From positions 84,256 to 148,255 of the forward strand of contig JBMFOU010000003.1 of the NCBI GenBank assembly GCA_049969475.1: DNA of 64,000 bases, given 5' to 3'. Made by a program: the position numbers and the translations under genes. This document shows, piece by piece, positions 8,091-43,480 of the stretch; position 1 is the first letter of the stretch; each line of letters begins with the position of its first letter. The DNA comes from Bacteroidales bacterium. GTDB taxonomy: Bacteria > Bacteroidota > Bacteroidia > Bacteroidales > TTA-H9. The notes beneath the pieces are model-generated. The model saw nothing but the letters and a program-made list of their open reading frames with translations, was not told where the DNA came from and ran no database searches.

Positions 8091-10835
8091 ATGAGGAAAA
8101 TCCTGCTTTTTTCCTTTTTTGGGGCTTATGCTGCGCTTTTAAAGGCCCAATTCTTTTCCTCTGGCCAGGAGTCTTGGGGTATAAGTTGGCAGCAGGTGTG
8201 TTCTCCCCATTTTCGGGTCGTATTTCCGCGGGGTAGCGATAGTTTGGCATTACATTATCTCGATGCTTTAGAAACTATGGCTCAAACATCCAGTTTTTCT
8301 CATAAAAAGCTAAACCGCAGGCTGGATGTATGGTTGCACACAAAAACCGCCCGGTCGAATGCGTGGATGGCCTGGGCCCCAGCCCGGCTCGAAGTGCTTA
8401 CCACACCCCCGCAGGATATGTATGCCCATGCATGGCCCGGACAACTCGCTGTTCACGAACTTCGACATGCTGTTCAGATAGAAAGCATCAATCATGGCAC
8501 TACCCGATGGATGAGCTATCTCTTGGGTCAGCAGGCCACTGGCCTGGCGCTTGGCTTGCACATACCCTTATGGTTGCTCGAAGGAGATGCCGTTTGGTCA
8601 GAAACCGTATTCTCCTGGGCAGGTCGCCTGCGCGACCCCTGGTTCCTGTTACCCCTCACAGCCCAATGGAAAGCCGGCCTTCTCGATTCCTACGACATGG
8701 CTTATTTCGGATCCTTCAAAAATTTCGTGCCTGACCATTACGTGCTGGGAGCAGCCCTGATAGCCTATGCTAACCATCGGTATGGCGATGATGCGCTATT
8801 CGGGATATTCTCACAGGCCGGCTCAAACTTTTTCTGGCCTGGAGCTTTCAGAAGAGGGCTTAAAAAGGCCACAGGGCTGAGGCCACAGGCTTTTTACACC
8901 CTTTGTCGCTCGGAATATGCTGCTGATACCCTGGTTACACCTTCACAATCTTATGAAAATCAAATTTATGGCGCCAGGGCAGCCGATGGGTACCTATTCC
9001 TCAGGCAAACAATAGGAAAGAATCCGGCATTTGTAAAAAGGGAAAATGGGAAAAATAGGATTTTAACAGAGGCAGGTTTTTACCTTGATACCCCCATTGA
9101 TGTAACTGCTGACTACATAGCCTTTGCCCGTAGTGTTCCCGATTTACGCTGGCAGCCCAGCGATCAAACCGAAATCGTGCTACTGGATACCCGATCAGGT
9201 GAAGAAAAGAAATTACGTTGGAGTAAAAGAGTCCTGGCCCCTGCGCTCTCGCCCGATAAGCTGAAGCTCGCTGCTACTGAATTTTTCGAAAACGGAAAAC
9301 AAACGCTCTGGATTTATAATTGGCTGAAGGATATCAGCGAAATAAAAGTGACCTATCCAGAAGCTGGATGGCTCACCTGGCCCGCTTGGATAGATAATAG
9401 CACATTGGTATTCGTCGAAACTGGAGATCGCGGTTATGCACTAGTGACTTTCCGACTCGACACAAAAAAATGGGAAAAACTGACATCCTATACCCGCCAT
9501 GCCATCCGCAGCCTGAAGGCAGTCGGCGATACCTTATACTTTGCAGGGGAATACCTTGGTAAAGGAGAAATCATGGCTTACCTATGTAGCACCCAAACCA
9601 CCTACCTGCTCACCGCCTCAGAATTGGGGGCTGATTATCCATCGTATGATAAAATCAGCGCAACCTTAACTTTCAGCGAATACACCCCCAATGGATACAA
9701 GCTCAAAAACCAGACTTTGGAGAAACTTTTATGGAAACCCGTTTCAGACTTTTGGAATTCCGCAGCCCCACTTATGACTGAGTTTCCTGTTTATGAACCC
9801 GATAAACAGGTCGAACTAAAACTTGATTCAATACGCCCTTATCGAAGCCTTGCCCATTTAATAAATATTCACAGTTACGGTCCTGTTTCAGTTTCAGCTG
9901 ATGAGGGTAGCATTAAGCCAGGATTTACCATCATGTCTCAGAATCTCTTGAATACTTTAATATTCAGAGGTGGGTATGAATATGAAACCGAAAAAAACGG
10001 AGGAAGGATTTTTTGCGAAGCCACCTATGCGGGGCTTTATCCCCTGATTCTGGCTTCAGCCCAAACCGGCTGGTACACCTATTCCAACCCCGACGGCAGC
10101 CAATTACAAGCCCGGGAGCGCGAGACCGAAATCAGAATTTTTCAACCTTTGAATTTCAGCCGCGGAAGATATTACCGGAACCTGGCCCTGCAGGTAGGAT
10201 TTGTTGGTCAGAACTATCGCTGGAGCAAAGATGAGCCAGGCAATAATACTCAGGAAACTACTCTTTACAGAGTAGACTATGCTTTGGCTGCCAGCCTGAG
10301 TAAAATCACACCTCAGCAAAATATGTTTCCTCGACCGGGTGTAAGTTTTAGAGGGTTTATCAGAACAACTCCCCTAAAAAACTACAACCGAGGGCAGCAA
10401 TATGCCACAGAGACCCATGTATACCTACCAGGAATTCTGGCCCACGATGGTTTCAGATTTTACCTGGGTTGGGAAAAATTTAACAGGCAAACCTTTGCTT
10501 CACAAATCATCCGTACTCCCCGGGGCTACAATACACAAACACCCCGGCCCCAAATCGACCTTGTTTCGATGGGAGCAACCTGGCGAACCCCTTTATTTTA
10601 CCCAGAAAAAGGCCTACCAGGAGCTCTGTATGTAAAACGCATTTATGGAGGATTGTTTTACGATCGAATGACTGGTCAGGCTCCCCTCTGGCAGTCGGCA
10701 GGAGTGGAGCTTTTTGCGGATGCTCATATTTTTAGGCTTCCTGCCCCCGCCAATTTTGGCCTTAGAGGAGTTTACCGGTTCACCGACCGAAAGGTCGTAT
10801 GGGAGGGCTTTGGAAGTGTGTCTTTTAATTTTTGA
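8091..10835 (+). CDS. Secreted 914-aa protein: N-terminal HExxH module, PD40/TolB-like repeats, C-terminal Omp85-like beta-barrel (function unknown)
   Basis: Signal peptide MRKILLFSFFGAYAALLKAQ. HELRH at residues 122-126 (nt 8454-8468) with a downstream LLEGDAVWSE. PD40-like segment LAPALSPDKLKLAATEFFENGKQTLWIYN. The last ~300 aa are rich in alternating aromatic/polar strands, include IYGGLFYDRMTG (resembles the Omp85 late-strand motif) and end in ...VSFNF. Confidence 0.8.
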   Translation: MRKILLFSFFGAYAALLKAQFFSSGQESWGISWQQVCSPHFRVVFPRGSDSLALHYLDALETMAQTSSFSHKKLNRRLDVWLHTKTARSNAWMAWAPARLEVLTTPPQDMYAHAWPGQLAVHELRHAVQIESINHGTTRWMSYLLGQQATGLALGLHIPLWLLEGDAVWSETVFSWAGRLRDPWFLLPLTAQWKAGLLDSYDMAYFGSFKNFVPDHYVLGAALIAYANHRYGDDALFGIFSQAGSNFFWPGAFRRGLKKATGLRPQAFYTLCRSEYAADTLVTPSQSYENQIYGARAADGYLFLRQTIGKNPAFVKRENGKNRILTEAGFYLDTPIDVTADYIAFARSVPDLRWQPSDQTEIVLLDTRSGEEKKLRWSKRVLAPALSPDKLKLAATEFFENGKQTLWIYNWLKDISEIKVTYPEAGWLTWPAWIDNSTLVFVETGDRGYALVTFRLDTKKWEKLTSYTRHAIRSLKAVGDTLYFAGEYLGKGEIMAYLCSTQTTYLLTASELGADYPSYDKISATLTFSEYTPNGYKLKNQTLEKLLWKPVSDFWNSAAPLMTEFPVYEPDKQVELKLDSIRPYRSLAHLINIHSYGPVSVSADEGSIKPGFTIMSQNLLNTLIFRGGYEYETEKNGGRIFCEATYAGLYPLILASAQTGWYTYSNPDGSQLQARERETEIRIFQPLNFSRGRYYRNLALQVGFVGQNYRWSKDEPGNNTQETTLYRVDYALAASLSKITPQQNMFPRPGVSFRGFIRTTPLKNYNRGQQYATETHVYLPGILAHDGFRFYLGWEKFNRQTFASQIIRTPRGYNTQTPRPQIDLVSMGATWRTPLFYPEKGLPGALYVKRIYGGLFYDRMTGQAPLWQSAGVELFADAHIFRLPAPANFGLRGVYRFTDRKVVWEGFGSVSFNF

Positions 10836-10913
10836 AAAATTAAAATATTTTTTTCACAACGATACAACTTTCCATAAATCATAGTGGTCAGTTAAACATA
10901 GGATAGCAACCCA

Positions 10914-11459
10914 ATGACGGAAGAAAGGCTCATCAAAGGCAGTCTGGAAGGCAATGCCCGTGTACAGAAGCAACTCTACGATCGCTATTCGCCTGCTATG
11001 TATGGTATTTGCCTTCGATACGCCGGAGACCCTGACGAAGCAGCCGACATTCTTCAGGAAGGTTTCATCAAAGTCTTTACGCGTCTGGGCGACTATCGCT
11101 ACGAAGGTTCTTTCGAAGGCTGGATCAGGAGAATCATCATTAACACCGCAATCAACCATTTGATGAGGCAAAAAAAATATCAATATCATGACGACCTTGA
11201 GGCTGTTGAGCGGGATATTATGCCCGACCCTTCTGTACTCGACAGGATGCAGCACCGCGATCTCATACGTCTTGTTCAACTCTTGCCTCCAGGTTACCGA
11301 ATGGTTTTTAACCTCTATGAAATCGAAGGCTATTCACATAAAGAAATTGCGGAAATGATGGGTATTTCGGTGAATACCTCCAAAACTCAGCTCCTGCATG
11401 CCCGTCGCTACCTTCAACGTAAAATTTTAGAAACTGAAAAAACTGTCAGCATAAAATGA
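10914..11459 (+). CDS. ECF-type RNA polymerase sigma factor (sigma-70 group 4)
   Basis: 181 aa. Region 2 reads DEAADILQEGFIKVF...WIRRIIINTAIN and region 4 reads PPGYRMVFNLYEIEGYSHKEIAEMMGISVNTSKTQLLHARRYL. Confidence 0.9.
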   Translation: MTEERLIKGSLEGNARVQKQLYDRYSPAMYGICLRYAGDPDEAADILQEGFIKVFTRLGDYRYEGSFEGWIRRIIINTAINHLMRQKKYQYHDDLEAVERDIMPDPSVLDRMQHRDLIRLVQLLPPGYRMVFNLYEIEGYSHKEIAEMMGISVNTSKTQLLHARRYLQRKILETEKTVSIK

Positions 11460-12556
11460 CCCCTGATTTTGACATTGGAAAATATTTTAAGGAGCGCATT
11501 GGCCATTATGCCGAAACACCTCCTGCCGGGGTATGGGATAAAATAACTACTCAGTTGCCCAACGCCCATACACCCAAGACCGGTTCTACCCAGAACTTGC
11601 GGTTTTACTATTATGCAGCCGGATTGCTCGTGGTGGGACTTATTGCTTTTCTTTTCTTTCTACCCCAATCCCAGCAACACACAGAAAAAAAGGCCGTTAC
11701 CACCCAGGTAGCCTCGCAAAATAGGACCGTTGAAAAGCCAACTTCCCTTTTAAGCGAAAAAAATAAGCCCACCGAGATTCCCTCCAATTCTAATCCTCAG
11801 AAATCCAAACAAGGTCAATCTCACCTACGGGAAGCATATCCCTCAGTCCCGAACCCCTTAGTGCAGACAACTACTATGGCTCATCAGGAAGGGAAAACCA
11901 TACCTGTGTCAACTCCCAGTCAGCAAAAATACCTTGAGCCTGCCATCCTGGCTGCGAACCAAAACACCCAACCTTCCACCTCTCAACCAAATGTAACTGC
12001 TTCTACTACTGAAGATAATTCACCCGATGATACCCTGAGCGCCTATACAGAAATTTCTCCAACGATCGACGAAAATAATTTATCCACAGAACAAATCCTA
12101 ACCGCCTGTAAGGGTGAGGAGCTTACGCTTAGCGCGGGCGAAGGCAGCGGACACCACTGGAATACAGGACAGAGCGGACAAACCATAACTTACACTCCCT
12201 TCGAAGACACCCGCCTGGTAGTGGAATACACCGACCTGAAAGGCAGAAAAGTATCCAGCACTTTCAATATCACACTGCTTAACTGTTCCGTCTTCGTACC
12301 CAAGGCATTCTCGCCCAACGACGACGGACACAACGATTTTTATCGGGTAAAAGCAGAGGGCATAAACAACTTTGAAATGAAGATATTCTCCAAATGGGGC
12401 GAACTGGTTTTCCAGACCCGCGACCCCGAAGCAGGATGGGATGGAAAACAAAAAGGAAACCCCGCCCCAGCCGGGGTGTATATTTACCAGATAAACTACA
12501 CTGATCCCAATAATCAAACACGGGCCATCTTCGGTACACTCACATTATTACGTTAG
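11456..12556 (+). CDS. Single-pass membrane protein (anti-sigma-like position) ending in a T9SS type-B (gliding-motility-associated) sorting domain
   Basis: ATGA start/stop overlap with the ECF sigma gene. It has a 49-aa N-terminus, a TM helix at residues ~50-70 (YYYAAGLLVVGLIAFLFFLP) and an S/T/P/Q-rich linker. The terminal ~88 aa (nt 12290-12553), VFVPKAFSPNDDGHNDFY...IFSKWGELVF...GWDGK...PAGVYIYQI...GTLTLLR, match the type-B CTD consensus. Confidence 0.85.
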   Translation: MTPDFDIGKYFKERIGHYAETPPAGVWDKITTQLPNAHTPKTGSTQNLRFYYYAAGLLVVGLIAFLFFLPQSQQHTEKKAVTTQVASQNRTVEKPTSLLSEKNKPTEIPSNSNPQKSKQGQSHLREAYPSVPNPLVQTTTMAHQEGKTIPVSTPSQQKYLEPAILAANQNTQPSTSQPNVTASTTEDNSPDDTLSAYTEISPTIDENNLSTEQILTACKGEELTLSAGEGSGHHWNTGQSGQTITYTPFEDTRLVVEYTDLKGRKVSSTFNITLLNCSVFVPKAFSPNDDGHNDFYRVKAEGINNFEMKIFSKWGELVFQTRDPEAGWDGKQKGNPAPAGVYIYQINYTDPNNQTRAIFGTLTLLR

Positions 12557-12590: not shown

Positions 12591-12628
12591 AAAAGGCTGC
12601 CCGCAGGGATGCGATCAGCCTTTTATTC
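12591..12628. terminator. Hairpin between convergent genes (possible bidirectional terminator)
   Basis: AAAAGGCTG (12591-12599) pairs with CAGCCTTTT (12616-12624). The A-run/T-run flanks give a U-tract on either strand. Confidence 0.6.
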
Positions 12629-12637
12629 GTTTAAAAT

Positions 12638-15600
12638 TTAGTGAGTGAGCTTTCTTATCAGTTCATTTAGATCCGTCAGCCTTAAAGGTTTGGCAAAGTA
12701 GAGGTCGGCTCCAGCCTCCATCGCTTCGGTGCGATCTTTTTCAAGGGCATAAGCTGTAACTATGGCTATTCTTGCCATTGCATTGATTTCTTTAAATTTT
12801 CGGGTGAGGGTATATCCATCAATATCAGGAAGTTTTACATCCATAATAACCCAATCGAAATCCGAATGATCGGTAAATAAATTCAATGCGTCAACCCCAT
12901 TGTTTTTGCAAACTACCTGAAAACCTTTAGATTCGAAAAAAAACTTTAAATAATCCTGATTCATTTGATCATCTTCAACAATCAATACCCTATTCACTGC
13001 TTTTGGGGTCGTGATCTCCACGATACCTTGATTATCAGTCGTTTTAGGAGTTTCAATAGATCTGATAGGGAGGAGTAGTTCGAAAATACTGCCCTCCCCT
13101 GGTTGGCTGTCTACAACTATTTCTCCCCCCAATTTCTTGCATAATGTTTTTACTAAGGCGAGACCCAGGCCCGCCCCCTCAAATCCGCGATTAATACGCA
13201 TATCGACCTGATAAAATTTGTCGAAAATTTTTTCCTTTTGTTCAGGGGATATGCCTACTCCGGTGTCCTCAACTATAAATGATAGTTTCCCATCCTGTAC
13301 TTTAAAGTCAATGCTTACATAACCTTTATGAGTAAATTTAATAGCATTGGATATCAAATTCCATAAAATACGCCGCAGTTTTTCATAATCTGTATCAATG
13401 ATGATATCAGGCTGCAATTTAAAATTAGCTTTGAGTTCAATCCTTTTGCTATTTGCGGGTTTAGTAAATTCATCCATTAGGGCTGAAAGTAATTCGTGTA
13501 CGCTTAAATGGGAAATCTCTAATTCGATATCCTGGGTTTCATAAGTAGTCAGATCGAGCAAGTCGGAAATGAGATGGAGAAGGCGAACACCACTTTGGTA
13601 AATATCTTCTGCATACTTCTTCATCAGGTGAGGTTCTACATGCCCTTCCATCATTAAGCTGCTGAACCCCATAATTCCGTTGAGGGGGGTGCGCAATTCA
13701 TGCGACATATTCTGTAATAGCCGTTCCTTAAATAAATCGCTCTCCTTCAGTTTATCGTATGCTTCCTGCAATTTGAGCTGTTGTTGTTTGCGGAAAATAA
13801 CCATTCCAAGAATCTTGGCTATGGCATCCAAGAGCTTCAAATCGTCCGCCGCAAATTTGTTTTCATCCTGGTAATCCTGAACTACTATTACCCCCAGTTT
13901 CTGATTTTCCAGCTGCAAAACACTACCCATCCAAACAGCAGAAGGAGTACCTATCCATTCAATTTCACCCCTTTGGAAAAGCTCTAATATTTCATTCTTC
14001 CTAAGCATTAGCGAATTTCCCTGATGTAAGAGATATCCTGACAAACTCCCCTTCACTGGCCAGGATGTTATACTATCCTTTTCATCCAAAGAATCGAGCT
14101 CGGTAAATTTCTGATTATCTAAATCAACAAGGGCAATGAAAACATTCCCGATTTTAAAATATTCAGCTATCCGACGTATGGCATAAGAACTAAATTCTTT
14201 CAGGCCTTCGAGGCGTGTGGCGGCCTCCAAAATCGCGTATTGCAAAATATGCATGGACTCCAACCGTTTTTCCTGAGTTACATCGCGGGCTGAGCCTACC
14301 ACAGCAATCATATTGCCGTTTTCATCGAAAAGCGGGGTTTTAATAACATCTAAAAACAGGAATTTTCCTTTGACATTCCCAAATTCGTCGAAGCGACCAG
14401 GCCTTCTTGTATCCAGGACTACCTGATCGCTATCCTGGCAAACTTCACCAAAAGTATGGTACTTAGGATTTTCAGGATGCGAAATCCTCTCACGTTCTTC
14501 AAAGTAGAGGTCGGTTTTCCCGAGGGGTTCTTCTATATCACGGGCATTTAATAGTTTCTCACAAATGGCTCTATTTACAAAAATAAATCTTTTATCCGTG
14601 TCTTTAGCCCAAAGCATGTCCTCCATGTCATCGACAATACTGCGAAACAACTCCTGTAAATGTTTGTATTTCTGTTCACTCTCCTTAAGTTGACTAAATA
14701 GTGCGTTGTGATTTATAATATTTTTTAGAAGCCTTGAGAACAGACGAAGCATATCCTTTTCATAATCTTGCCATTGGGCTAGAGTGTTCGTTCGAGCAAA
14801 ACCTACAAGGCCCAAGTTCCCCTCATCCCCAGGTATTGAGACTAATATTAGGGTGTGCACCTGCTGCCTTGTAAGAAATAATTGAATGGGTTCCTCAGTA
14901 TTCACATCCTTGTATAGCTCAAGGATTTTCTCTTCTACAGGGGATTTCAAATGCTTTTTATGGAAATTTTTAGAAATTTGAATTGCAAAACTCTGCAAAA
15001 CATCATTATTACCCCCAAAATTATATTTTAATAATTTCTCAGAAAGTTCTTTCACAAAAGGCGAAAAGTGAATGAAAGCCCAATCAGCATTTAGATCGGT
15101 GGCAATATCCTGCAACATGCGTAATAAACCTACCTCCAAGTTTCCAGGATCAACATGCACATATTCCAATGCCATGCGGAAAATCTTATCCTGAATATTA
15201 AAAGCGCGTTGAGCTTTGGCTTCGGCAAGTTTTAGAGGAGTAATATCGCGCACAATAGCCATAACCTCCCTTTTCGCGACATAAATGTAACGTGTCTCAA
15301 AATATCTTTCCTCCCCATTGAGATTGAGGGTATACTCATCGCTTGCTATTTCTTGATTTTGAATAACTTTTTTAACATTTCTTTTGGTCAGCTCGGCAAT
15401 ATCGGGAGGAAGGACTTCTTCTACCCGTTTGCCAAGGAAAATCTCTGGAGGCAAATAAAGATCTTTTTTGTTTCCTGTATACACATCGATAAACTTACAT
15501 TCCTCATCAAAAACAAAAAAATAATCGTACAGCAGACTGAGCAAAGAGTTCCAGCGACTTGATAGGATTCCTGTTTCTGTGTCATGCCGTTCGCTACTCA

Positions 15601-15949
15601 ACTGAAGAATGCTAGCGACAAAGGTTTTGTCATCTATGGGCCAAATACTAAGCAAATATTCTTTAAACTCTCTAAGATTAAAAAATTGACGTGTAATACT
15701 TTGATGCTGATCAAGTTGATAGATTATCTCTTGGGTTTTGGCCGATTCTCCCGTAAGATAAATAAGCAACTCGCTAACCGACATATCTAAGTTTTCAAGC
15801 GAAAAAATATTTAACCAGGCTGAATTATGATAAACTGGGCGGGCTGAAGCAAGACTTTCTCCGACTTTTTTAAAAACAGCCATGGGAATGGGTGAATGAC
15901 TGTAAATACGCTGAATTGAATCAATTTCTTCCATAAACGGCAACTTCAA
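12638..15949 (-). CDS. Hybrid sensor histidine kinase / response regulator with multiple PAS/GAF-like sensor modules
   Basis: 1103 aa. H-box SHELRTPLNGI, N-box NLISNAIKFT, G-boxes DTGVGI and GAGLGLAL, and a C-terminal receiver (VLIVEDD...VIMDVKLPDIDG...KPL). Confidence 0.9.
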   Translation of the reverse strand: MKLPFMEEIDSIQRIYSHSPIPMAVFKKVGESLASARPVYHNSAWLNIFSLENLDMSVSELLIYLTGESAKTQEIIYQLDQHQSITRQFFNLREFKEYLLSIWPIDDKTFVASILQLSSERHDTETGILSSRWNSLLSLLYDYFFVFDEECKFIDVYTGNKKDLYLPPEIFLGKRVEEVLPPDIAELTKRNVKKVIQNQEIASDEYTLNLNGEERYFETRYIYVAKREVMAIVRDITPLKLAEAKAQRAFNIQDKIFRMALEYVHVDPGNLEVGLLRMLQDIATDLNADWAFIHFSPFVKELSEKLLKYNFGGNNDVLQSFAIQISKNFHKKHLKSPVEEKILELYKDVNTEEPIQLFLTRQQVHTLILVSIPGDEGNLGLVGFARTNTLAQWQDYEKDMLRLFSRLLKNIINHNALFSQLKESEQKYKHLQELFRSIVDDMEDMLWAKDTDKRFIFVNRAICEKLLNARDIEEPLGKTDLYFEERERISHPENPKYHTFGEVCQDSDQVVLDTRRPGRFDEFGNVKGKFLFLDVIKTPLFDENGNMIAVVGSARDVTQEKRLESMHILQYAILEAATRLEGLKEFSSYAIRRIAEYFKIGNVFIALVDLDNQKFTELDSLDEKDSITSWPVKGSLSGYLLHQGNSLMLRKNEILELFQRGEIEWIGTPSAVWMGSVLQLENQKLGVIVVQDYQDENKFAADDLKLLDAIAKILGMVIFRKQQQLKLQEAYDKLKESDLFKERLLQNMSHELRTPLNGIMGFSSLMMEGHVEPHLMKKYAEDIYQSGVRLLHLISDLLDLTTYETQDIELEISHLSVHELLSALMDEFTKPANSKRIELKANFKLQPDIIIDTDYEKLRRILWNLISNAIKFTHKGYVSIDFKVQDGKLSFIVEDTGVGISPEQKEKIFDKFYQVDMRINRGFEGAGLGLALVKTLCKKLGGEIVVDSQPGEGSIFELLLPIRSIETPKTTDNQGIVEITTPKAVNRVLIVEDDQMNQDYLKFFFESKGFQVVCKNNGVDALNLFTDHSDFDWVIMDVKLPDIDGYTLTRKFKEINAMARIAIVTAYALEKDRTEAMEAGADLYFAKPLRLTDLNELIRKLTH

Positions 15950-15984: not shown

Positions 15985-16458
15985 TCAGAGCAGAGCCCAG
16001 ATAAAATATCCCAAGGCAGCCAGGGCATAGATTATTTTGGCAGCTATGCCGCTGATAAATCCCAGAAAAGCACCCAATCCCGATTTCATGGCTTCCTGCA
16101 TAGACTTACCCACCAGCATTTCTCCCACAAAAGCACCCAGTAAGGGTCCCAATATTATTCCAAAGGGCCCCCAAAAGATGCCGACTACCAGACCTACAGC
16201 AGCCCCATTTACCCCGGCTTTACTTCCTCCCAGGCGGGCTGTTGTCCAGATGGGAAGATAGTAATCGAGCAGGGTGAGAAGCAATGCCATGATGCCCCAG
16301 CCCATAATCGTTGAATCATTAATGGCTGGATGGTGAAGGAAACGAAGCCCAAGAAGGCCCAGGAAGGATAGCGGTGGACCAGGTAAAACAGGTAAAACGC
16401 TTCCCACCAGACCTCCCAGGAGCAGCACAATGCCAACCCCAATGATAAAAGTATCCAT
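15985..16458 (-). CDS. DUF456-family small membrane protein
   Basis: MDTFIIGVGIVLLLGGLVGSVLPVLPGPPLSFLG is a typical DUF456 N-terminus. I chose the ATG at 16458; the longer ORF (to 16503, TTG/ATG) would overlap the divergent lolE-like start. Confidence 0.75.
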   Translation of the reverse strand: MDTFIIGVGIVLLLGGLVGSVLPVLPGPPLSFLGLLGLRFLHHPAINDSTIMGWGIMALLLTLLDYYLPIWTTARLGGSKAGVNGAAVGLVVGIFWGPFGIILGPLLGAFVGEMLVGKSMQEAMKSGLGAFLGFISGIAAKIIYALAALGYFIWALL

Positions 16459-16493
16459 TCGTAATTCTTTTAGGCTTTTCAAATTTAATACTT

Positions 16494-17738
16494 TTGCCAT
16501 CAAAAAGGCGCGTATTGTTTGAGAAAATACTGGTCAGGCATATTTTGAAAGGTAGTGGCCCACAAATGGCCAGGCCTTCAGTACGTATTGCCATTGCCAG
16601 TGTGGCTATAGGGGTAGCCGTGATGATATCATCCATAGCTATCCTACAGGGATTTAAACACGAAATCAGGAGTCGCATTGCCGGGTTTGCAGCCCACATA
16701 AGGGTAAGCACTTTCAGCGACAACACCTCGGCCGAACCCTCTCCTTTTACAGCCGATAGCCTACTGATCGACAATATCTATAAAGTGCACGGGGTTAAAC
16801 ACGTTCAGAAGGTAGCATACAAAACCAGTCTGCTACGAACCCGTGACCAGATCCAGGGGCTGGTTTTAAAAGGAGGAGGCAGCGACTTCGATACCTCTTT
16901 TTTAAAAGAAAACCTTACCACAGGCAGGCTCCCCAACTTCTCTGATACAGCCAATTCCTATGAGCTCCTGATTTCAAAGAAAATAGCCCAGCTCTTACAG
17001 GTAAAAACGGGGGATAAAGTAACCCTTTTTTTCATGGGGCAAGGAGAAAACACGCCAAGGGCTCGAAGATTCGCCATCACAGGTATTTACGACACCGGGC
17101 TTGAGGACTTCGACCAGACCATGGCCTTCTGCAACATCCGGCACCTGCGCCGCATCAACGACTGGAAGCCCGACGAGGTGGGTTTGCTCGAAATATATCT
17201 TGACCGGGAAGACCGAATGGATGAGATCTCCCAGAAATTATACCAACTCTTACCTTCTCAACTCAATGTAAGCAGCATGCGCGAAAACTATCCTCAGATT
17301 TTCGATTGGCTGCAGCTGCAGGATGTAAACGTGGTTGTCATTCTGGTGCTAATGATCCTCGTATCGGTGATGGCCATGAGCAGTGCCCTGGTAATATTGA
17401 TTGTTGAAAAAACCAGGAGTATAGGAATACTGAAAGCGCTAGGTGCACATGATTCCCACCTCCGGAGAGCTTTTCTTCTGGCATCAACCAATATTGCAGG
17501 TAAAGGACTTTTGTGGGGAAACCTTGTAGGGCTTGTATTGATGGGCCTGCAGGCTCATTTTCATCTGGTGCCTTTACCCCGCGATTCCTACTATATGGAC
17601 TACGTACCCGTTTTGATTCAGGTGACTCCACTGGTGCTCATCAATGTGGGAACCCTTGTACTTTGCGTAGTCTCCATGCTCCTTCCTACCCGAATTATCA
17701 CCCGAATCACTCCTTTGAAAGCTATAAGATTTAGATAA
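16494..17738 (+). CDS. LolC/LolE-type (FtsX-like) ABC transporter permease
   Basis: 414 aa with an N-terminal TM, a large periplasmic loop and C-terminal FtsX-type TM helices (GILKALGA motif). The start is a TTG at 16494; a TTG at 16515 is an alternative. Confidence 0.85.
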   Translation: MPSKRRVLFEKILVRHILKGSGPQMARPSVRIAIASVAIGVAVMISSIAILQGFKHEIRSRIAGFAAHIRVSTFSDNTSAEPSPFTADSLLIDNIYKVHGVKHVQKVAYKTSLLRTRDQIQGLVLKGGGSDFDTSFLKENLTTGRLPNFSDTANSYELLISKKIAQLLQVKTGDKVTLFFMGQGENTPRARRFAITGIYDTGLEDFDQTMAFCNIRHLRRINDWKPDEVGLLEIYLDREDRMDEISQKLYQLLPSQLNVSSMRENYPQIFDWLQLQDVNVVVILVLMILVSVMAMSSALVILIVEKTRSIGILKALGAHDSHLRRAFLLASTNIAGKGLLWGNLVGLVLMGLQAHFHLVPLPRDSYYMDYVPVLIQVTPLVLINVGTLVLCVVSMLLPTRIITRITPLKAIRFR

Positions 17739-18391
17739 TGAGAAACTTCATTTTTTTGATCTTGCTCGTTGTACTTCTGGCGGCCTGCACCCGTACTGAA
17801 ACCTCTTATCACCCCAATGGTAAACTCATGAGCGTGGTGCAAAAGAAACACGGTAAAAAGGAAGGACAGGCGCTATACTACTATCCCAACGGAACCCTCC
17901 AGCAAGAGACCTGGTACCACAAAAATTTGTTACATGGTTTATCGAAAAGATATTGGCCCAATGGCAACATAGAGCGGGAAGAAAACTACGAAAAGGGCCA
18001 TAAAAACGGAGAGGTGAAGGGTTACTACCCAAGTGGTAAACTCTTCTTTAAGGCCCATTACAGAAAAGACACCCTCGATGGTAGCTATGAAGAATGGCAC
18101 GAAAACGGCATGCCTAAGGTAATAGGCCAATACAGCAAAGGCCTTTTTGAAGGCAAATGGGAGTATTTTGATGAAAACGGTTTCAAGTTGGGGGAAGGTC
18201 ATTACCAGAAAGGCACAGGTATTCAGAAAGCCTGGCATTACAACGGCAAACCCTGGCGAATCATTGAGTACAAAGACAACCGAAAAAATGGGCGGCAGGA
18301 GGAATACGACGAGGAGGGACGGCTGGTTAGAATTTCGCAATATCGCAACGACTCGCTGATCAGCACTACATCAACCAATAAGCATCAATAA
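17738..18391 (+). CDS. MORN-variant (YwqK-like) repeat lipoprotein
   Basis: Lipobox LLAAC and repeated G.xxxYYPNG/WxENG units. TAATG overlap (17736-17740) with the preceding permease gene. Confidence 0.8.
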   Translation: MRNFIFLILLVVLLAACTRTETSYHPNGKLMSVVQKKHGKKEGQALYYYPNGTLQQETWYHKNLLHGLSKRYWPNGNIEREENYEKGHKNGEVKGYYPSGKLFFKAHYRKDTLDGSYEEWHENGMPKVIGQYSKGLFEGKWEYFDENGFKLGEGHYQKGTGIQKAWHYNGKPWRIIEYKDNRKNGRQEEYDEEGRLVRISQYRNDSLISTTSTNKHQ

Positions 18392-36244: not shown

Positions 36245-39200
36245 GTGGATGCGTTGAAAACCTTACTAAGGACTGCGATTCTATTAACTCTACCACTGGC
36301 CGGCATAGTAAGTGCATGGTCGGGTAATGGACTGATAACAGGATTTCCCGAAAACACAAGAGGAAATCCTCCCGATACCATTAAACTCCGATATCCATTC
36401 AAAGACCGGCAGCTCTATCAGCCAGGCGATGTGCAGGAATCGAAACTTTACGGCCGTACGCCCAATAATATCAGTGTTCAAACGGAATACGACCCTGCTA
36501 CGGGAAACTACATCATGACAGAGAAAGCCGGAAACCTTATTACCAGGCCACCCGTGGTAATGGGCTTCGATGAATATCAACAATATGATGCTCAGCGGGC
36601 CCTGCGCTCCTATTGGAAAGAAAAATCGCTGGGCACCAAAGGAACAGGCAGTGATGGCATTATTCCTTCCATTTACATTGGGGGGCAGGCTTTCGATAAA
36701 ATTTTTGGAGGCAGTACGATCGATGTACGTCCTAATGGCTCGGCCGAACTCATTTTCGGCGTTCTGGCCAACCGCCGCGATGACCCCAGCCTCAACGAAA
36801 GACAACGCAAAACCGTAAATTTCGACTTCCAACAAAAAATTCAGATGAACGTAATCGCCAAGGTGGGCGATAAAATTGAGTTCAAGGCCAATTACAATAC
36901 CGAATCCTCTTTCGATTTCGAAAATAAAATTCAGCTGAAATACGAAGGGAAGGAAGATGAAATCATCAAACTACTGGAAGTAGGCAATGTGAATCTGCCA
37001 CTGAACTCCACCCTCATACAAGGTAGCCAAAGCCTTTTTGGGGTGAAAACCAAAATGCAGTTTGGTAGAACCACGGTGACCGCCGTTTTTTCGCAGCAAG
37101 AAAGCGAAACCAAAAATATTACGGTAGAAGGGGGAGCCCAGACCAGCACCTTCAGACTTACAGCCGACCAGTATGAAGAAAACCGACATTTCTTTCTTTC
37201 TCAGTATTTCCGGGACCAATACAACCGTGCCCTCGAAAAACTACCTATCATTCAGTCGAATATCAATATCACTAAAATCGAGGTCTGGATTACCAATATA
37301 GGCGCTGCCGTAACCGACAACCGTAACATTGTGGCTTTTCAGGATTTGGGAGAAAAGATTCCTTACAATAAAAACCTATCAACAACTATCGGGGCACCTG
37401 CTTATCCAGATAACAAGGTAAACAACCTGCTCACCTACCTCGACGTCAATCAGTTGCGCAACATTAATACAGCTTCCAACTATCTGAAGGCCAATGATTT
37501 TGTGGGAGGAATCGATTTTGAGAAAGTAGAAAATGCCCGTAAGTTATCGCCTTCGGAATACACCTTCAATCCCAAATTGGGTTTCATTTCTCTCAATACC
37601 AACCTTAATCCTGACCAGTCGCTGGCTGTAGCCTATCAATATACCGTTGTAGGCGACACCACGGTATATCAGGTAGGTGAATTCAGCGACGGAGGTGTAA
37701 GCGCACCCAATAGCCTGGTGGTGAAGCTCCTGAAGAGCACTGCCGTAAACACCCGTGTTCCTCTATGGAACCTGATGATGAAAAACGTTTATGCCATTGG
37801 TTCCTATGGTATCAATCGGCAAGACTTCATTCTCAATGTTTTATATTCCGGGGGGAGCAACGGAGTACCAACGGGCTATCTCACCGAAGGAAACATAGCC
37901 GGCGAACCGCTCATCAGGGTTCTAGGCATGGACAATCTGGACCCACAGCTAAACCCTCCGCCTGATGGCATATTCGACTTTATTGATAATGCAGCCACAC
38001 AAGGGGGAACCATCAACTCCAGCAATGGACGTGTGTATTTCCCTGTTATTGAACCTTTTGGCAAAGATCTACGAGAAAAAATTGGCGACGACAAACTGGC
38101 CGACAAATATTGCTACGACTCGCTCTATACCCTCACCAAAGTCGGGGCACAACAATACCCCGAAAAAAACAAATTCATCATCGAGGGCTTTTACAAATCG
38201 TCGGTGAGCAGTGAAATTTCTTTGAATGCTCTGAATGTACCGCAGGGGTCGGTCAGGGTAACCCACGGAGGGATTCCCCTGACAGAAAATGTGGATTATA
38301 CCGTAGACTACACGTTGGGAAGGGTAAAAATCATCAACGAAGCCTTGCTAAGCAGCGGTACGCCTATCAATATTTCGCTCGAGAGCAACACCATGTTCAG
38401 CATTCAGAGCAAGCGATATATGGGTGCGCATGTGGACTACGAGGTTAGCAAAGACTTCGTTCTGGGGGCCACTATCATCAATCTGGCCGAAAAGCCTCTG
38501 ACTCAGAAGACCATACTGGGCGAAGACCCCATCTCCAATACCATCTGGGGCCTCAATATGGCCTGGCAGGATGAATCGCAACTTTTAACGCGACTTTTGG
38601 ATAAGTTGCCGTTTTATTCCACCAATGTAGTTTCCAAGGTGGCTTTTACCGGAGAATTTGCGCACTTTATCCCCGGGCACAGTAGTGCAATTGGTTCCAC
38701 AGGAACTTCTTATATCGACGATTTTGAGGCAGCCAAATCGACTATTGACCTCCGCCTGCCTAACAACTGGTTTTTAGCCAGCACCCCCCAGGGACAGACC
38801 CAGCCGGGTATGTTCCCCGAAGCAGCTCTGGGAACCGGACTCGCTTATGGGTTTAATCGGGCAGGAATGAGCTGGTACATTATCGACCCTCTGTTTTACG
38901 ACCGCACAGGCAACGTCAGGCCCAAAAATATCACCAAAGACGAACTTTCGAAAAACACTGTCAGGCAGGTACTTGAAAACGAAGTTTTCCCGGCCAAGGA
39001 AATTCCCAACGGCGTTCCCACCAACATTGCCGTGTTGAATGTAGATTTTTATCCTGATCAGCGTGGACCTTACAATTATGATGTAGAAGGAATACCTGGT
39101 CTTTCCTACGGAATAAACCCTGATGGTACGCTAAAGAATCCCCGTTCGCGTTGGGGTGGCATGATGCGCAAAATAGAATCCACCGACTTTGAAGCCACCA

Positions 39201-42200
39201 ACGTGGAATACATAGAGTTCTGGATGATGGACCCCTTTGCCGATGACCCGGAAAACCCCGGAGGTGACCTTTACTTCAACCTGGGCGATATATCGGAAGA
39301 CATCTTGCGCGATGGACGTAAGAGTTTCGAAAACGGTTTGCCCATCGGCCCTGAGGTTACTGATGTAGATACCACCATTTGGGGGCGCGTGCCCCGCAAA
39401 CAGTCGCTGGTGAATGCCTTCGACAATGATCCTCAAACCCGACAATACCAGGACGTGGGCTACGACGGACTTTCGGATGAAGATGAGAGAAGCTTCTTCG
39501 AACAGGCTTACCTTCAGAAAATCATCAATCTCTATGGGGCAGGTTCTCAGGCTTATATTGATGCTTTTGAAGATCCATCGGGTGATAACTTCCGGTATTT
39601 TAGGGGAACAGGCATGGATCAGGACGACCGATTTAAAAGCATAACCGAACGTTACCGCCGATATCAGGGGCCTCAAGGGAACAGCCCTACTCCAGAGCAA
39701 TCGGGCGAACCTTTCTCAACCATGGCCACTACCCTCCCTAACACCGAAGATATCAATAATGACAATACCCTCTCGGAAGAAGAACGCTATTTCCAATACA
39801 AAATCGAATTGCGGCCCGATAAGATGAATGTGGGAGAAAACTACATTGCCGACATTTACTATGCCCGCGATATACCTCTGGAAAATGGACAGAGGGGCGC
39901 CGTAAAATGGTATCAATTCAAAATACCCATCAACGACCCCCAACTCATTGTCGGAGATATTCAGGACTTCAAGTCCATCCGGTTTATGCGTATGTTTTTC
40001 AAAAACTGGTCGAAATCGGTTACCACCCGCTTTGCTACCTTCGAACTAGTGAGGGGCGATTGGCGCCGCTACCGTTATGATTTGACCTCACCGGGCGAAT
40101 ATATCCCCAACGACGAGCAAAGCACCACTAAATTCGAGATTACTACAGTCAACATTGAGGAGAATGGCAGCAAATATCCCATTCCCTACGTAATACCACC
40201 AGGAATAGAGCGAGAAATTAATTACGGAGCCACTAACTATACCCGCCTCAATGAACAGGCCATGGTCCTCAGGGTGAGGGAACTGCAGGACGGAGATGCT
40301 CGGGCTGCTTATAAAACTACAGGATTCGATTTCCGGCAGTATGGAAGGCTGAAGATGTTTGTGCATGCTGAAGACCTCGACGCAGCTCACCCCAACCGCG
40401 ATGGAGACCTTACCATTTTCCTGCGCATGGGTGCCGACTTCAACCAAAACTATTACGAATACGAAATCCCCCTCAAATTCACGCCTTGGGGAACCTCTAC
40501 AGCCAATCCTGCCCTTATTTGGCCCGATGATAACAGCTTCGATATTGACCTAGAAAAACTGGTTCAAATAAAACTCGACCGTAATGTGGCCGTTCGAGAA
40601 GGCCAGATAGCCGGTGGAATCTACACCCCTTTTATTACTTACGACGGAAAAAATAAAATAACCATCGTGGGTACACCCAGCCTCAGCGACGTGAAGGCCA
40701 TTATGATAGGGGTTAGAAATCCCAAACGCCAGGCACTCACCGACCCCGACGATGGGCTTCCCAAAAGCGCCGAGATCTGGGTCAATGAGCTAAGGTTGAC
40801 CGATTTTAACAATAAATCGGGTTGGGCCGCTACGGGTCGTTTCACGGCCAATCTGGCCGACCTGGGCAATCTTTCGATGACTCTCTCGCATAGCACACCG
40901 GGATTTGGTAGCATCGAGAAAAAGGTAAATGAAAGGCAAAAAGAAACCATTACCTCCTTCGATTTTGCCACAAATCTGCAGCTTGGTAAATTCTTCCCCG
41001 AAAAATCGGGCGTCCGCGTTCCCATGCATTACGATTATTCGCAGACGGTGATGAGCCCGCAGTACAATCCGCTGGATCCTGATATCAAGTTGAAGGAAGA
41101 CCTGGCCACCTACCCACATGAAACAGAAAAAGACTCGCTACGCAAGCTGACAGAAGATTTCACCCAACGCAAGAACATCAGCTTCATGAACGTCCGCAAA
41201 GAAAGAGTGGGAGCCACTCGTTTGCCCCGGCCCTGGGATGTAGAAAACTTCGATATCTCCTACTCTTATAGCGAACTCAACCGCCGCAATATCGACATAG
41301 AGTACGACAACAAAAAAGCCTATCGGGGAGGCATTGGTTATAACTTTATGAACCAGCCTAAAAATTACAAACCCTTCGAACGCATCAGCTTTATAAGTAA
41401 AAGCAAGAATCTTCAACTTATCAAAGACTTCAATTTCTACCTGCTGCCCCGCATGTTCACTTTCCGTACCGACCTGAACCGGGAGTATACCGAACGAAAG
41501 CTCCGCAATAAGAGCCAGGCTCTGGTTATCATTGAACCCTCGTACATCAAATCGTACACATGGACGCGCATGTACGACTATAAACATGACCTTACCCAGG
41601 GACTGAAAGTTGAATTTAATGCCAACGCCAATGCTCTTATTGACGAACTTCCCGGAAGCGTTGACAAGGACGACTACGGGTATACTGTACAGGAAAAACG
41701 CGAACAAATCAGAAAACAGCTGCTGGGTCTCGGCACTATGAACCAGTATAATCAGGTGCTCAATGTTAACTATAACATTCCCATCAACAAATTACCCTTA
41801 CTGGATTTTCTGACGGCCACAGCACGCTATCAAGGAACCTACAACTGGACGGCTACTCCACGCTCGATTCAGGCCACTATGGGGAATAAGGCAGAAAACA
41901 GTAATTCATTGCAATTTAATGGTAACGTAAGATTTACAACGCTATACAACCGTGTACCCTATTTCAAGCGGGTGCTGGCCACCATGCAGCCTACCCGCAG
42001 AGGCGGCCCCCGTCCCCAAACCCCTCAGCGAAATCAGCCTCAAACCCAGGCTAAAGCCGATACAGCGCAAAAAACCAAACCTAAAATCAACTACTTCCAG
42101 AAAGGAGCCGAAGCCCTTGTGAAAATAGCGCTGGGATTGAAAGATGGTTCTCTTTCGTACACTGAATCGAATGGAACCTTGTTACCCGGCTTCAAACCAA

Positions 42201-43480
42201 CACCCGGCTTTATTGGCAACGACATGAATCTTAATGCACCTGGATTGGGGTTCGTATTTGGGAGCCAGAGCGATATACGATACCGGGCTGCAGCCAACGG
42301 ATGGCTCACTGATGACTCGCTCTTCAACATGGCTTATGCTACCCAACACACTACTACGCTCAATGCCAGGGCTACTTACGAACCATTCCGCGACTTCAGG
42401 GTAGAACTGACGGCCAACCGCACCTTTGCCCGCAACCATCAGGAATACTTCAAAGTAATAGATGGCACTTACAATTCCTTCTCTCCGGTCGAATCGGGAA
42501 GCTTCTCCATCAGCTACATCACCATTGGAACCGCCTTTAAAACCACCGATGCAAATTTCAATTCCCAACCTTTCGACCAGATGAAGGGAATGCGCCGTGA
42601 AATAGCCTTACGCCTGGCAGAACAGAATCCCAACTGGGCAGCCAATCCCCAGTTTAACGATACTACCGGATTCCCTGTCGGCTACGGGCCCACATCTCAG
42701 GAGGTACTGCACTATTCTTTCCTGGCAGCCTATAGCGGCAAATCTGCCGGTCAAATCAAACTCAACCCCTTCCCCTCTATTCCTCTGCCTAACTGGAGAA
42801 TTACTTACAAGGGGCTCTCAAACCTGGAATGGGTGAAAAAATATTTCCGGGAGTTTACCCTGTCCCATGGATACCGTTCCACTTATAATGTGGGCAATTT
42901 TTCAACCAATATTCTTTACCGCGAAAACCAAGGATTCCCTGTTGCGCTCGACGACATAAACAACTTTATTCCCCAATACCAGATCTCGCAGGTAGCCATT
43001 ACCGAGCAATTCGTGCCTCTTTTTGGCATCGACATGACCTGGAACAATAACATTCTGTCGAAGCTTGAGTTTAAACGTAGCCGCAACCTGGCCATTAGTT
43101 TTGCAAATAATCAACTTACCGAAATTGGCAGCAAGGAATTCGTAATCGGCATAGGTTACAGGTTTAAAGATGTGGAGCTGGTGATGAGAGGTGCCGGCGG
43201 AGGCCCTTCGCAGCGTTTCAAAAGCGACCTCAACCTGCGGGCCGATATATCCATAAAAGACAATAAAACCATTCTGCGCAGAATCTATGAAGATATAAAT
43301 CAGATTTCATCGGGCCAGAAAATGGCTCAGATAAACCTCTCGGCCGACTATCAGCTTAACGAGCGCCTCACCATGCGGTTATTCTTCGATAAAGTCATTA
43401 CCAATCCCTACGTATCAAACCAATATTCATCGAGCACCACCAATGGAGGTTTGAGTCTGAGGTTTACGCTTGCGCAATAA
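36245..43480 (+). CDS. sprA: T9SS translocon / cell-surface protein SprA (Sov family)
   Basis: 2411 aa with a GTG start 8 nt after the ruvA stop and a signal-peptide-like N-terminus. The size, position after ruvA and sequence character (a giant beta-barrel protein ending ...GGLSLRFTLAQ) fit SprA. Confidence 0.92.
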   Translation: MDALKTLLRTAILLTLPLAGIVSAWSGNGLITGFPENTRGNPPDTIKLRYPFKDRQLYQPGDVQESKLYGRTPNNISVQTEYDPATGNYIMTEKAGNLITRPPVVMGFDEYQQYDAQRALRSYWKEKSLGTKGTGSDGIIPSIYIGGQAFDKIFGGSTIDVRPNGSAELIFGVLANRRDDPSLNERQRKTVNFDFQQKIQMNVIAKVGDKIEFKANYNTESSFDFENKIQLKYEGKEDEIIKLLEVGNVNLPLNSTLIQGSQSLFGVKTKMQFGRTTVTAVFSQQESETKNITVEGGAQTSTFRLTADQYEENRHFFLSQYFRDQYNRALEKLPIIQSNINITKIEVWITNIGAAVTDNRNIVAFQDLGEKIPYNKNLSTTIGAPAYPDNKVNNLLTYLDVNQLRNINTASNYLKANDFVGGIDFEKVENARKLSPSEYTFNPKLGFISLNTNLNPDQSLAVAYQYTVVGDTTVYQVGEFSDGGVSAPNSLVVKLLKSTAVNTRVPLWNLMMKNVYAIGSYGINRQDFILNVLYSGGSNGVPTGYLTEGNIAGEPLIRVLGMDNLDPQLNPPPDGIFDFIDNAATQGGTINSSNGRVYFPVIEPFGKDLREKIGDDKLADKYCYDSLYTLTKVGAQQYPEKNKFIIEGFYKSSVSSEISLNALNVPQGSVRVTHGGIPLTENVDYTVDYTLGRVKIINEALLSSGTPINISLESNTMFSIQSKRYMGAHVDYEVSKDFVLGATIINLAEKPLTQKTILGEDPISNTIWGLNMAWQDESQLLTRLLDKLPFYSTNVVSKVAFTGEFAHFIPGHSSAIGSTGTSYIDDFEAAKSTIDLRLPNNWFLASTPQGQTQPGMFPEAALGTGLAYGFNRAGMSWYIIDPLFYDRTGNVRPKNITKDELSKNTVRQVLENEVFPAKEIPNGVPTNIAVLNVDFYPDQRGPYNYDVEGIPGLSYGINPDGTLKNPRSRWGGMMRKIESTDFEATNVEYIEFWMMDPFADDPENPGGDLYFNLGDISEDILRDGRKSFENGLPIGPEVTDVDTTIWGRVPRKQSLVNAFDNDPQTRQYQDVGYDGLSDEDERSFFEQAYLQKIINLYGAGSQAYIDAFEDPSGDNFRYFRGTGMDQDDRFKSITERYRRYQGPQGNSPTPEQSGEPFSTMATTLPNTEDINNDNTLSEEERYFQYKIELRPDKMNVGENYIADIYYARDIPLENGQRGAVKWYQFKIPINDPQLIVGDIQDFKSIRFMRMFFKNWSKSVTTRFATFELVRGDWRRYRYDLTSPGEYIPNDEQSTTKFEITTVNIEENGSKYPIPYVIPPGIEREINYGATNYTRLNEQAMVLRVRELQDGDARAAYKTTGFDFRQYGRLKMFVHAEDLDAAHPNRDGDLTIFLRMGADFNQNYYEYEIPLKFTPWGTSTANPALIWPDDNSFDIDLEKLVQIKLDRNVAVREGQIAGGIYTPFITYDGKNKITIVGTPSLSDVKAIMIGVRNPKRQALTDPDDGLPKSAEIWVNELRLTDFNNKSGWAATGRFTANLADLGNLSMTLSHSTPGFGSIEKKVNERQKETITSFDFATNLQLGKFFPEKSGVRVPMHYDYSQTVMSPQYNPLDPDIKLKEDLATYPHETEKDSLRKLTEDFTQRKNISFMNVRKERVGATRLPRPWDVENFDISYSYSELNRRNIDIEYDNKKAYRGGIGYNFMNQPKNYKPFERISFISKSKNLQLIKDFNFYLLPRMFTFRTDLNREYTERKLRNKSQALVIIEPSYIKSYTWTRMYDYKHDLTQGLKVEFNANANALIDELPGSVDKDDYGYTVQEKREQIRKQLLGLGTMNQYNQVLNVNYNIPINKLPLLDFLTATARYQGTYNWTATPRSIQATMGNKAENSNSLQFNGNVRFTTLYNRVPYFKRVLATMQPTRRGGPRPQTPQRNQPQTQAKADTAQKTKPKINYFQKGAEALVKIALGLKDGSLSYTESNGTLLPGFKPTPGFIGNDMNLNAPGLGFVFGSQSDIRYRAAANGWLTDDSLFNMAYATQHTTTLNARATYEPFRDFRVELTANRTFARNHQEYFKVIDGTYNSFSPVESGSFSISYITIGTAFKTTDANFNSQPFDQMKGMRREIALRLAEQNPNWAANPQFNDTTGFPVGYGPTSQEVLHYSFLAAYSGKSAGQIKLNPFPSIPLPNWRITYKGLSNLEWVKKYFREFTLSHGYRSTYNVGNFSTNILYRENQGFPVALDDINNFIPQYQISQVAITEQFVPLFGIDMTWNNNILSKLEFKRSRNLAISFANNQLTEIGSKEFVIGIGYRFKDVELVMRGAGGGPSQRFKSDLNLRADISIKDNKTILRRIYEDINQISSGQKMAQINLSADYQLNERLTMRLFFDKVITNPYVSNQYSSSTTNGGLSLRFTLAQ

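Follow-up and report, generated by a model that had tools for sequence, protein, structure and literature searches.

A putative anti-sigma factor ending in a type IX secretion sorting domain is encoded directly after an extracytoplasmic function sigma factor gene in a Bacteroidales bacterium

We analysed a stretch of 64,000 nucleotides (hereafter the window) of contig JBMFOU010000003.1 from the Bacteroidales bacterium assembly GCA_049969475.1, and in it a pair of genes encoding an extracytoplasmic function (ECF) sigma factor and a membrane protein with a type IX secretion system (T9SS) sorting domain at its C-terminus. The first gene (positions 10914..11459, + strand) encoded a group 4 sigma factor of 181 amino acids (aa), and the second (11456..12556, + strand) was read from the open reading frame (ORF) table and the raw sequence as a protein of 366 aa, for which 21 full-length homologues were available at 35-65% identity. 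In the raw sequence, the stop codon of the sigma gene overlapped the start of the 366-aa ORF by 4 bp (ATGA at 11456-11459). The sigma factor consisted of sigma-2 and sigma-4 domains only, matched by PF04542 (1.4e-17, residues 21-88) and PF08281 (1.6e-17, residues 115-166) respectively, and it scored 107.8 bits (4.3e-31) against TIGR02937, for which the cut-off is 42.9 bits. The product of 10914..11459 is a genuine ECF-type sigma factor.

The anatomy of the 366-aa protein was determined from an alignment of the 21 full-length homologues and from an AlphaFold2 (AF2) model built on that alignment. Residues 1-40 (11456..11575; this and all following segments are on the + strand) formed a conserved motif, delimited by the alignment and the motif profile, which is predicted to be cytoplasmic and is proposed here as the sigma-binding region. 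Its consensus was DIGKxFKExxxxYxExPPxxVWxKI, with G8, F11, P22, P23, and W27 invariant in the alignment, and the AF2 model placed two short helices in it at low confidence. A single transmembrane (TM) segment followed at residues 46-70 (11591..11665), where the model showed the lone hydrophobic helix of the protein at residues 46-67 with a predicted local distance difference test (pLDDT) score of about 83. Averaged over 24 family members, the net charge was +2.5 in the 15 residues before the helix and +0.17 after it, and this positive-inside bias argued for a cytoplasmic N-terminus. The hydrophobic segment started at about residue 46, behind the conserved 40-aa motif, which is not the layout of a cleavable Sec signal peptide. 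Since the alignment of homologues contained no conserved signal-peptidase motif after the helix, the sequence indicates that the 366-aa protein carries a signal anchor, with its N-terminus in the cytoplasm, rather than a signal peptide.

Beyond the helix, residues 71-207 (11666..12076) made up a predicted disordered tether of about 137 aa, in which S, T, P, Q, and N accounted for 55% of the residues, pLDDT was below 45, and the alignment columns were unconserved. The tether led to an immunoglobulin (Ig)-like beta-sandwich at residues 208-277 (12077..12286), modelled with six strands at pLDDT 87-96, flanked by the invariant cysteines C218 and C277, and bearing the invariant pattern CxGEE...L.A..G...W in the alignment. 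This domain resembled the repeats of the T9SS substrate GhpA. Foldseek, too, recognised Ig-like modules in tandem and ranked fragments of GhpA highest. A type-B T9SS C-terminal domain (CTD) occupied the extreme C-terminus, residues 278-366 (12287..12553). It was matched by PF13585 at 1.2e-18 and 67.4 bits (cut-off 27, residues 281-355) and by TIGR04131 at 7.9e-16 and 58 bits (cut-off 35, residues 281-364 of 366). The CTD was the best-conserved region of the protein in the alignment, and the family profile also gave a match of 7.6e-8 to that of GhpA, a solved type-B substrate. No barrel domain was found at the C-terminus by Pfam or in the AF2 model, which gave CHU_C and the Ig-like domain instead. 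A Pfam scan of the whole protein at E<=1 returned CHU_C only, with no classical anti-sigma head of the zf-HC2, RskA, or FecR type. The NCBIfam model NF052375 ('antisigma') matched weakly (E = 0.0044, 17 bits with a cut-off of 100) and was not used as evidence.

A preliminary description of the locus, made by a model from the letters of the DNA alone, had reported an ECF sigma gene joined by an ATGA overlap to a 366-aa ORF, one TM helix at about residues 50-70, an S/T/P/Q-rich linker, and a type-B CTD at the C-terminus. The coordinates of both genes agreed with the ORF table and the sequence, and the helix, the linker, and the CTD were each recovered in our analysis, the last with both profile models above their curated cut-offs. 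The zf-HC2 and RskA-like models that it had named for a check of the N-terminus gave no hit, and a distinct conserved motif was found there. The Ig-like domain between linker and CTD was absent from that description.

Further loci were collected by exact-protein look-ups and by a scan of GTDB species genomes, and were analysed by script. They represented 17 distinct lineages, all uncultured, and all of them metagenome-assembled genomes of Bacteroidales, Sphingobacteriia, or other Bacteroidota. In each of the 17 lineages, the ORF combining the N-terminal motif with a type-B CTD had an orthologous ECF sigma gene directly upstream on the same strand. In the scripted set the two genes overlapped by up to 11 nt or were separated by up to 21 nt, and the three look-up loci had overlaps of 4-23 nt. 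The same loci contained 87 other ORFs with a type-B CTD, and every one of them was without the N-terminal motif. Across the family, identity to the window proteins was 50-86% for the sigma factors and 28-50% for the partner proteins. The flanking genes varied between lineages, and the pairing was therefore not simply inherited gene order. No natural fusion of the sigma factor with the motif was present among the fetched proteins. Two of the three checks named in the preliminary description, the profile hit to the type-B CTD and the conservation of the two genes as neighbours, thus came out in its favour.

The motif was then followed beyond this family, by searching a 40-position profile of it against 1.84 billion representative proteins. 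The motif (F..F..E.PP..W..I) was matched by 1448 representative proteins at E<=1e-3, and it had neither a Pfam family in the Pfam scan nor a relative in a profile search of the PDB. The best 150 motif proteins carried 1-6 tandem copies, of which the last ended a few residues before a TM helix, and after motif and helix came a low-complexity stretch followed by a variable C-terminal module. Among 113 motif representatives of at least 200 aa, a set from which six listed representatives of the window's own family are excluded, OMP_b-brl_2 was found in 17, CHU_C in 3, and a type-A CTD in none, and most of the others had no significant Pfam match. All five non-CTD motif proteins that we inspected directly followed an ECF sigma gene, namely three barrel proteins of named Flavobacteriaceae, a 236-aa protein in locus L090, and a four-repeat protein with an unknown C-terminus. 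The window sigma factor was 41-42% identical to the sigma factors paired with the motif-plus-barrel proteins of Flavobacteriaceae, an identity which is at most an indirect hint of membership in ECF21, the group of Das1 and EcfO. Taken as sequence evidence, these results suggested that the N-terminal motif marks a large anti-sigma-like superfamily.

Most of the motif proteins (P0035-P0178) bore a third, unannotated C-terminal module, and many ended in ...L(K/Q)ENxx. In Dokdonia ponticola (L090, 919-5623), two modules lay within 5 kb, a sigma gene with the 236-aa motif protein and then a sigma gene with a 540-aa motif-plus-barrel protein, and the sigma-plus-motif modules of this species appear to be duplicated.

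An ECF-type promoter-like motif, ACAAC-N18-GTC (10864..10889, + strand), was located 49 nt before the sigma start codon and was recognised by its conserved position. In 12 of 14 loci, otherwise diverged in their intergenic regions, CAAC-N18-GTC preceded the sigma ATG by 45-49 nt, the background density being 0.074 per kb per strand, and it was also found before the sigma gene in L094 and L095. This arrangement is typical of ECF-style -35 and -10 elements, and an autoregulated promoter is probable. Prediction of a regulon in the window with ACAAC-N18-GTC was rejected, since 2 matches were obtained versus 1.16 expected; the second exact match (37422-37447, + strand) lay inside the coding sequence of sprA and is probably due to chance. 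Downstream of the 366-aa gene, a stable hairpin followed by UUUUAUU (12591..12624, + strand; minimum free energy -20 kcal/mol, z = -2.96) lay between convergent genes and is a likely terminator, though one not flagged by a simple terminator scan. Its position after the 366-aa gene pointed to a two-gene operon in the window.

Larger clusters were found in three divergent lineages (L017, 4169-10469; L094, 1-5636; L095, 1-6889), where the sigma and anti-sigma genes stood between an M16 peptidase gene on one side and, on the other, a gene for a second and probably inactive M16 subunit and one for a cargo protein with fibronectin type III (FN3) domains. The FN3 proteins of the three lineages were orthologous and carried a signal peptide and a type-B CTD, and in L017 the promoter-like motif was present 38 nt before the cargo gene. 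This cluster and the motif in front of the cargo gene make it probable that, in some lineages of the family, the sigma factor controls the expression of one or more type-B cargo proteins. An orthologous M16 gene, apparently without a signal peptide, was directly 5' of the sigma gene in ten lineages and was missing beside the window pair.

The window also encoded parts of the secretion system itself. The gene for the outer-membrane translocon, sprA, was located at 36245..43480 (+ strand; PF14349 SprA_N, 1.4e-200), in agreement with the preliminary description, which had placed it in this window. Gingipain-like C25 cysteine peptidases were encoded by two neighbouring genes (51936-55778 and 55922-59806, both on the - strand). 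Each of these proteins, about 1280-1294 aa long, combined a propeptide and an Ig-like domain with a T9SS CTD of type A, with a PKD domain added in one and a CUB domain in the other. Since sprA and peptidases with type-A CTDs were both encoded in the window, a T9SS is present in this organism. Type-B CTDs are reported to stay uncleaved and to bind 14-stranded outer-membrane barrels of the PorP/SprF type, by which the cargo is anchored (PMC9143113). A PorP/SprF-like gene was found neither beside the window pair, as had been stated before, nor among ten window ORFs of suitable size, all of which were housekeeping or signalling genes. Orphan type-B substrates use shuttles encoded elsewhere, and every known T9SS effector has a cleavable N-terminal Sec signal peptide (PMC12618676). 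With no PorP/SprF gene nearby and no signal peptide, the 366-aa protein would therefore be an orphan among type-B substrates and an exception to the signal-peptide rule.

The pairing in 17 of 17 lineages, together with a motif common to sigma-adjacent single-pass proteins, led us to conclude that the 366-aa protein is very probably the cognate anti-sigma factor of the adjoining sigma factor. Of the earlier picture of a protein at the anti-sigma position with a T9SS tag, the pairing and the CTD stood. That picture had also called the topology odd. The combination of a predicted membrane anchor with a T9SS tag was confirmed, but the topology has a precedent in Dma1/Reo (PMC10927553). In Dma1 (BT_4721, WP_008766767.1)/Reo of Bacteroides, an ECF sigma factor is followed by a protein with a short N-terminus, a TM helix, a long disordered tether, and an OMP_b-brl_2 barrel (Pardue et al., PNAS 2024, PMC10927553; the Dma-type system is also treated in PMC13088901 and PMC13114119). 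Dma1 spans both membranes, its first 40 residues pull down the ECF21 sigma factor Das1, and its proteolytic fragments suggest regulated degradation (PMC10927553). From the gene position and this published Dma1(1-40)-Das1 pull-down, we infer that residues 1-40 of the window protein bind its sigma factor.

The window protein resembled Dma1/Reo in that its gene directly followed that of an ECF sigma factor, in its short cytoplasmic N-terminus, one TM helix, and long disordered tether, in a C-terminal module presumably destined for the outer membrane, and in its restriction to Bacteroidota, and the window motif recurred in proteins that are encoded next to sigma genes and have an OMP_b-brl_2 barrel at the C-terminus. 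It differed in ending with an Ig-like domain and a type-B CTD instead of an eight-stranded barrel, so that its attachment to the outer membrane would need the T9SS and a shuttle rather than barrel insertion, and no NigD genes were seen here. As the family is defined, it is thus not a Dma member, because it has no barrel, though it may function in the manner of one. In this single superfamily, a barrel or a type-B CTD can follow the same head and tether, and either module ends fixed in or on the outer membrane. For this reason we favour, at slightly under an even chance, a Dma-like anti-sigma factor that spans the envelope and receives its outer-membrane anchor in trans from the T9SS type-B branch.

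According to this proposal, the first 40 or so residues would hold the ECF sigma factor at the inner membrane, the single TM helix would anchor the protein with its N-terminus inside, and the disordered tether of about 137 residues would cross the periplasm. The Ig-like domain and type-B CTD would be captured by SprA and a PorP/SprF-like shuttle encoded elsewhere, fixing the far end at the outer membrane, a task that Dma proteins perform with a beta-barrel of their own. As long as the tether was intact, sigma would be off. Loss or proteolysis of the tether, upon disturbance of the envelope or the T9SS or upon damage to the outer attachment, would cause the stub to be degraded and would free the sigma factor, which would transcribe its own operon from the CAAC-N18-GTC promoter and, in some lineages, the FN3 type-B cargo. 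The capture by the T9SS, the tethered resting state, and the proteolytic release are inferred steps.

Several points weighed against the trans-anchored reading. The homology of the motif to Dma1(1-40) would rest on shared architecture and gene context, not on an alignment. In the loci with precomputed Pfam calls, there was no PorP/SprF-like gene within about 6 kb of the family members. By our own reasoning from published structures, a chain anchored in the inner membrane could not exit the SprA barrel sideways, so that the translocon might be jammed by a tether that stayed threaded for good. The last difficulty would not arise if the CTD stayed on the periplasmic side of the outer membrane, since no tethered chain would then have to be threaded through SprA. 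There, in an arrangement akin to cell-surface signalling, it could bind the inner face of a PorP-like barrel or another part of the T9SS, as FecR does with FecA, and report on its abundance or state. The high conservation of the CTD would fit one fixed partner, and PorP occurs in a complex with periplasmic PorE and PorK/N (PMC9143113). All characterised type-B CTD proteins, however, are surface-exposed (PMC9143113, PMC12618676), and we regard such purely periplasmic docking as unlikely. A tether of about 137 residues is also longer than the reach to the inner face of the outer membrane, although this argument is weak. The protein might otherwise be an ordinary small T9SS cargo or adhesin with a long or uncleaved signal sequence, which merely sits in the operon of the sigma factor and does not inhibit it. 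In keeping with this, it had no recognised anti-sigma Pfam domain, and its sole match to an anti-sigma model was the one to NF052375, far under the cut-off. But the strong constraint on the 40 residues before the TM helix would be unexpected in such a cargo, elsewhere up to six tandem motif copies place about 180 aa before the helix, which is incompatible with the n-region of a signal peptide, and each motif protein checked followed an ECF sigma gene, whatever its C-terminal domain. We consider an ordinary cargo very improbable.

FlgM, the anti-sigma-28 factor, is itself a secretion substrate, a soluble one, and leaves the cell whole via the flagellar type III apparatus. A similar logic could apply here, close to what the preliminary description had in mind. 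The CTD would be pulled into SprA when the type-B branch was assembled and its shuttle free, the tether would be strained or cut, and proteolysis would release the sigma factor, so that it was on only when secretion could proceed and would then drive type-B cargo. As with FlgM, the sigma inhibitor bears a secretion signal, so that sigma activity could depend on whether a secretion machine is complete or active; the two systems differ in that there is no homology between them, that only the outer end would be exportable here, and that release would need proteolysis. This export checkpoint would account for the tight sequence of M16 subunit and FN3 type-B cargo genes after the sigma and anti-sigma genes, on the same strand, in three divergent lineages, and for CAAC-N18-GTC before the cargo gene in L017. 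A substrate tethered to the inner membrane would, in addition, presumably need cutting to clear the translocon. Type-B shuttles are reported to be specific and to be used stoichiometrically rather than recycled (PMC12618676), and in Porphyromonas gingivalis a T9SS CTD protein already informs an ECF sigma factor about the secretion system, through PorA, PorXY, and SigP (PMC7712824, PMC12152298). On the other side, the window operon is without a cargo gene and its hairpin follows the anti-sigma gene, and in the related Dma proteins the intact form is regarded as the off state (PMC10927553). The anti-sigma CTD and the CTD of the cargo from the same locus were only 34-36% identical; as a test for the same shuttle this comparison is uninformative, and it gave no sign of a shared one. 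On balance we hold the export checkpoint to be less likely than not, though it is the main rival of the trans-anchored reading. The same tentative standing applies to the broader claim behind it, that one polypeptide reaching from the cytoplasm to the cell surface reports mechanically whether the type-B branch is assembled and free, and in doing so switches on an ECF regulon that includes type-B cargo.

Other known systems shared parts of this design. Like the SprB-SprF, Fjoh_3952-3951, and PG1035-PorP-PorE systems, the window protein had a C-terminal TIGR04131/PF13585 domain behind an Ig-like module (PMC9143113, PMC12618676), and the orphan arrangement without an adjacent shuttle gene is also known among the type-B substrates of F. 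johnsoniae. Known substrates have a cleavable Sec signal peptide and are loose in the periplasm before export, whereas the window protein keeps an inner-membrane anchor and a cytoplasmic motif and was always paired with a sigma factor. In the P. gingivalis pathway, cargo, two-component system, and orphan sigma factor are separate, while here sensor and inhibitor would be one polypeptide. In the FecA-FecR-FecI system, which PMC10927553 discusses, a single-pass anti-sigma factor controls an ECF sigma factor and communicates with an outer-membrane barrel. The present pair is alike in placing an ECF sigma factor under a single-pass anti-sigma factor that would talk to an outer-membrane barrel, but no FecR domain and no TonB-dependent transducer nearby were seen, and the partner would be a barrel of the PorP family, reached via a secretion signal. 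The window protein is best described as joining the Dma-type and the type-B designs, while lacking both the barrel that defines Dma proteins and the signal peptide of T9SS substrates. Our full-text literature searches, with most subscription journals outside their coverage, returned no paper that describes a T9SS sorting domain on an anti-sigma factor, and novelty is to that extent unproven.

If the trans-anchored reading is correct, the Dma design would be modular, with the same sigma-binding head and tether mounted either on a self-inserting barrel or on the sorting signal of a secretion system. A single protein would link the T9SS to an ECF sigma factor; most of what is known about T9SS regulation comes otherwise from PorXY-SigP of a single species. 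It would also challenge the rule that T9SS substrates are periplasmic proteins released by Sec, as this one would stay anchored in the inner membrane, and it would make a tractable case for testing how a tethered chain copes with the SprA translocon. Should the checkpoint be correct instead, it would represent a T9SS counterpart of FlgM export and the first T9SS substrate without a cleavable signal peptide. In addition, the motif flags a large, unannotated, putative anti-sigma head with more than 1400 representatives, which could improve ECF annotation across Bacteroidota.

The neighbouring genes of the window were inspected as well. Directly upstream of the sigma gene, 8091-10835 (+ strand) encoded a 914-aa protein with a signal peptide and no Pfam family, in which an invariant HExxH (H122, E123, H126), a TolB-like beta-propeller (PDB 7mx5, 2.4e-6), and the ending ...SFNF were recognised. 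In six lineages this protein was encoded upstream of the pair, and in the remaining ones the fetched flank did not contain it; it may be an envelope protease, and no firm link to the pair was found. On the other side, a 1103-aa hybrid histidine kinase/response regulator (12638-15949, - strand) separated the pair from a DUF456 gene. It looks like an insertion in the window lineage, since DUF456 directly followed the pair in L001, L004, and L007. At 15985-18391 lay the DUF456 gene and genes encoding a MacB/FtsX-like permease and a protein with MORN repeats, with glutamate dehydrogenase after them. This gene order was kept downstream of the pair in lineages whose anti-sigma proteins were only 35-50% identical, and it may reflect plain synteny rather than a functional link.

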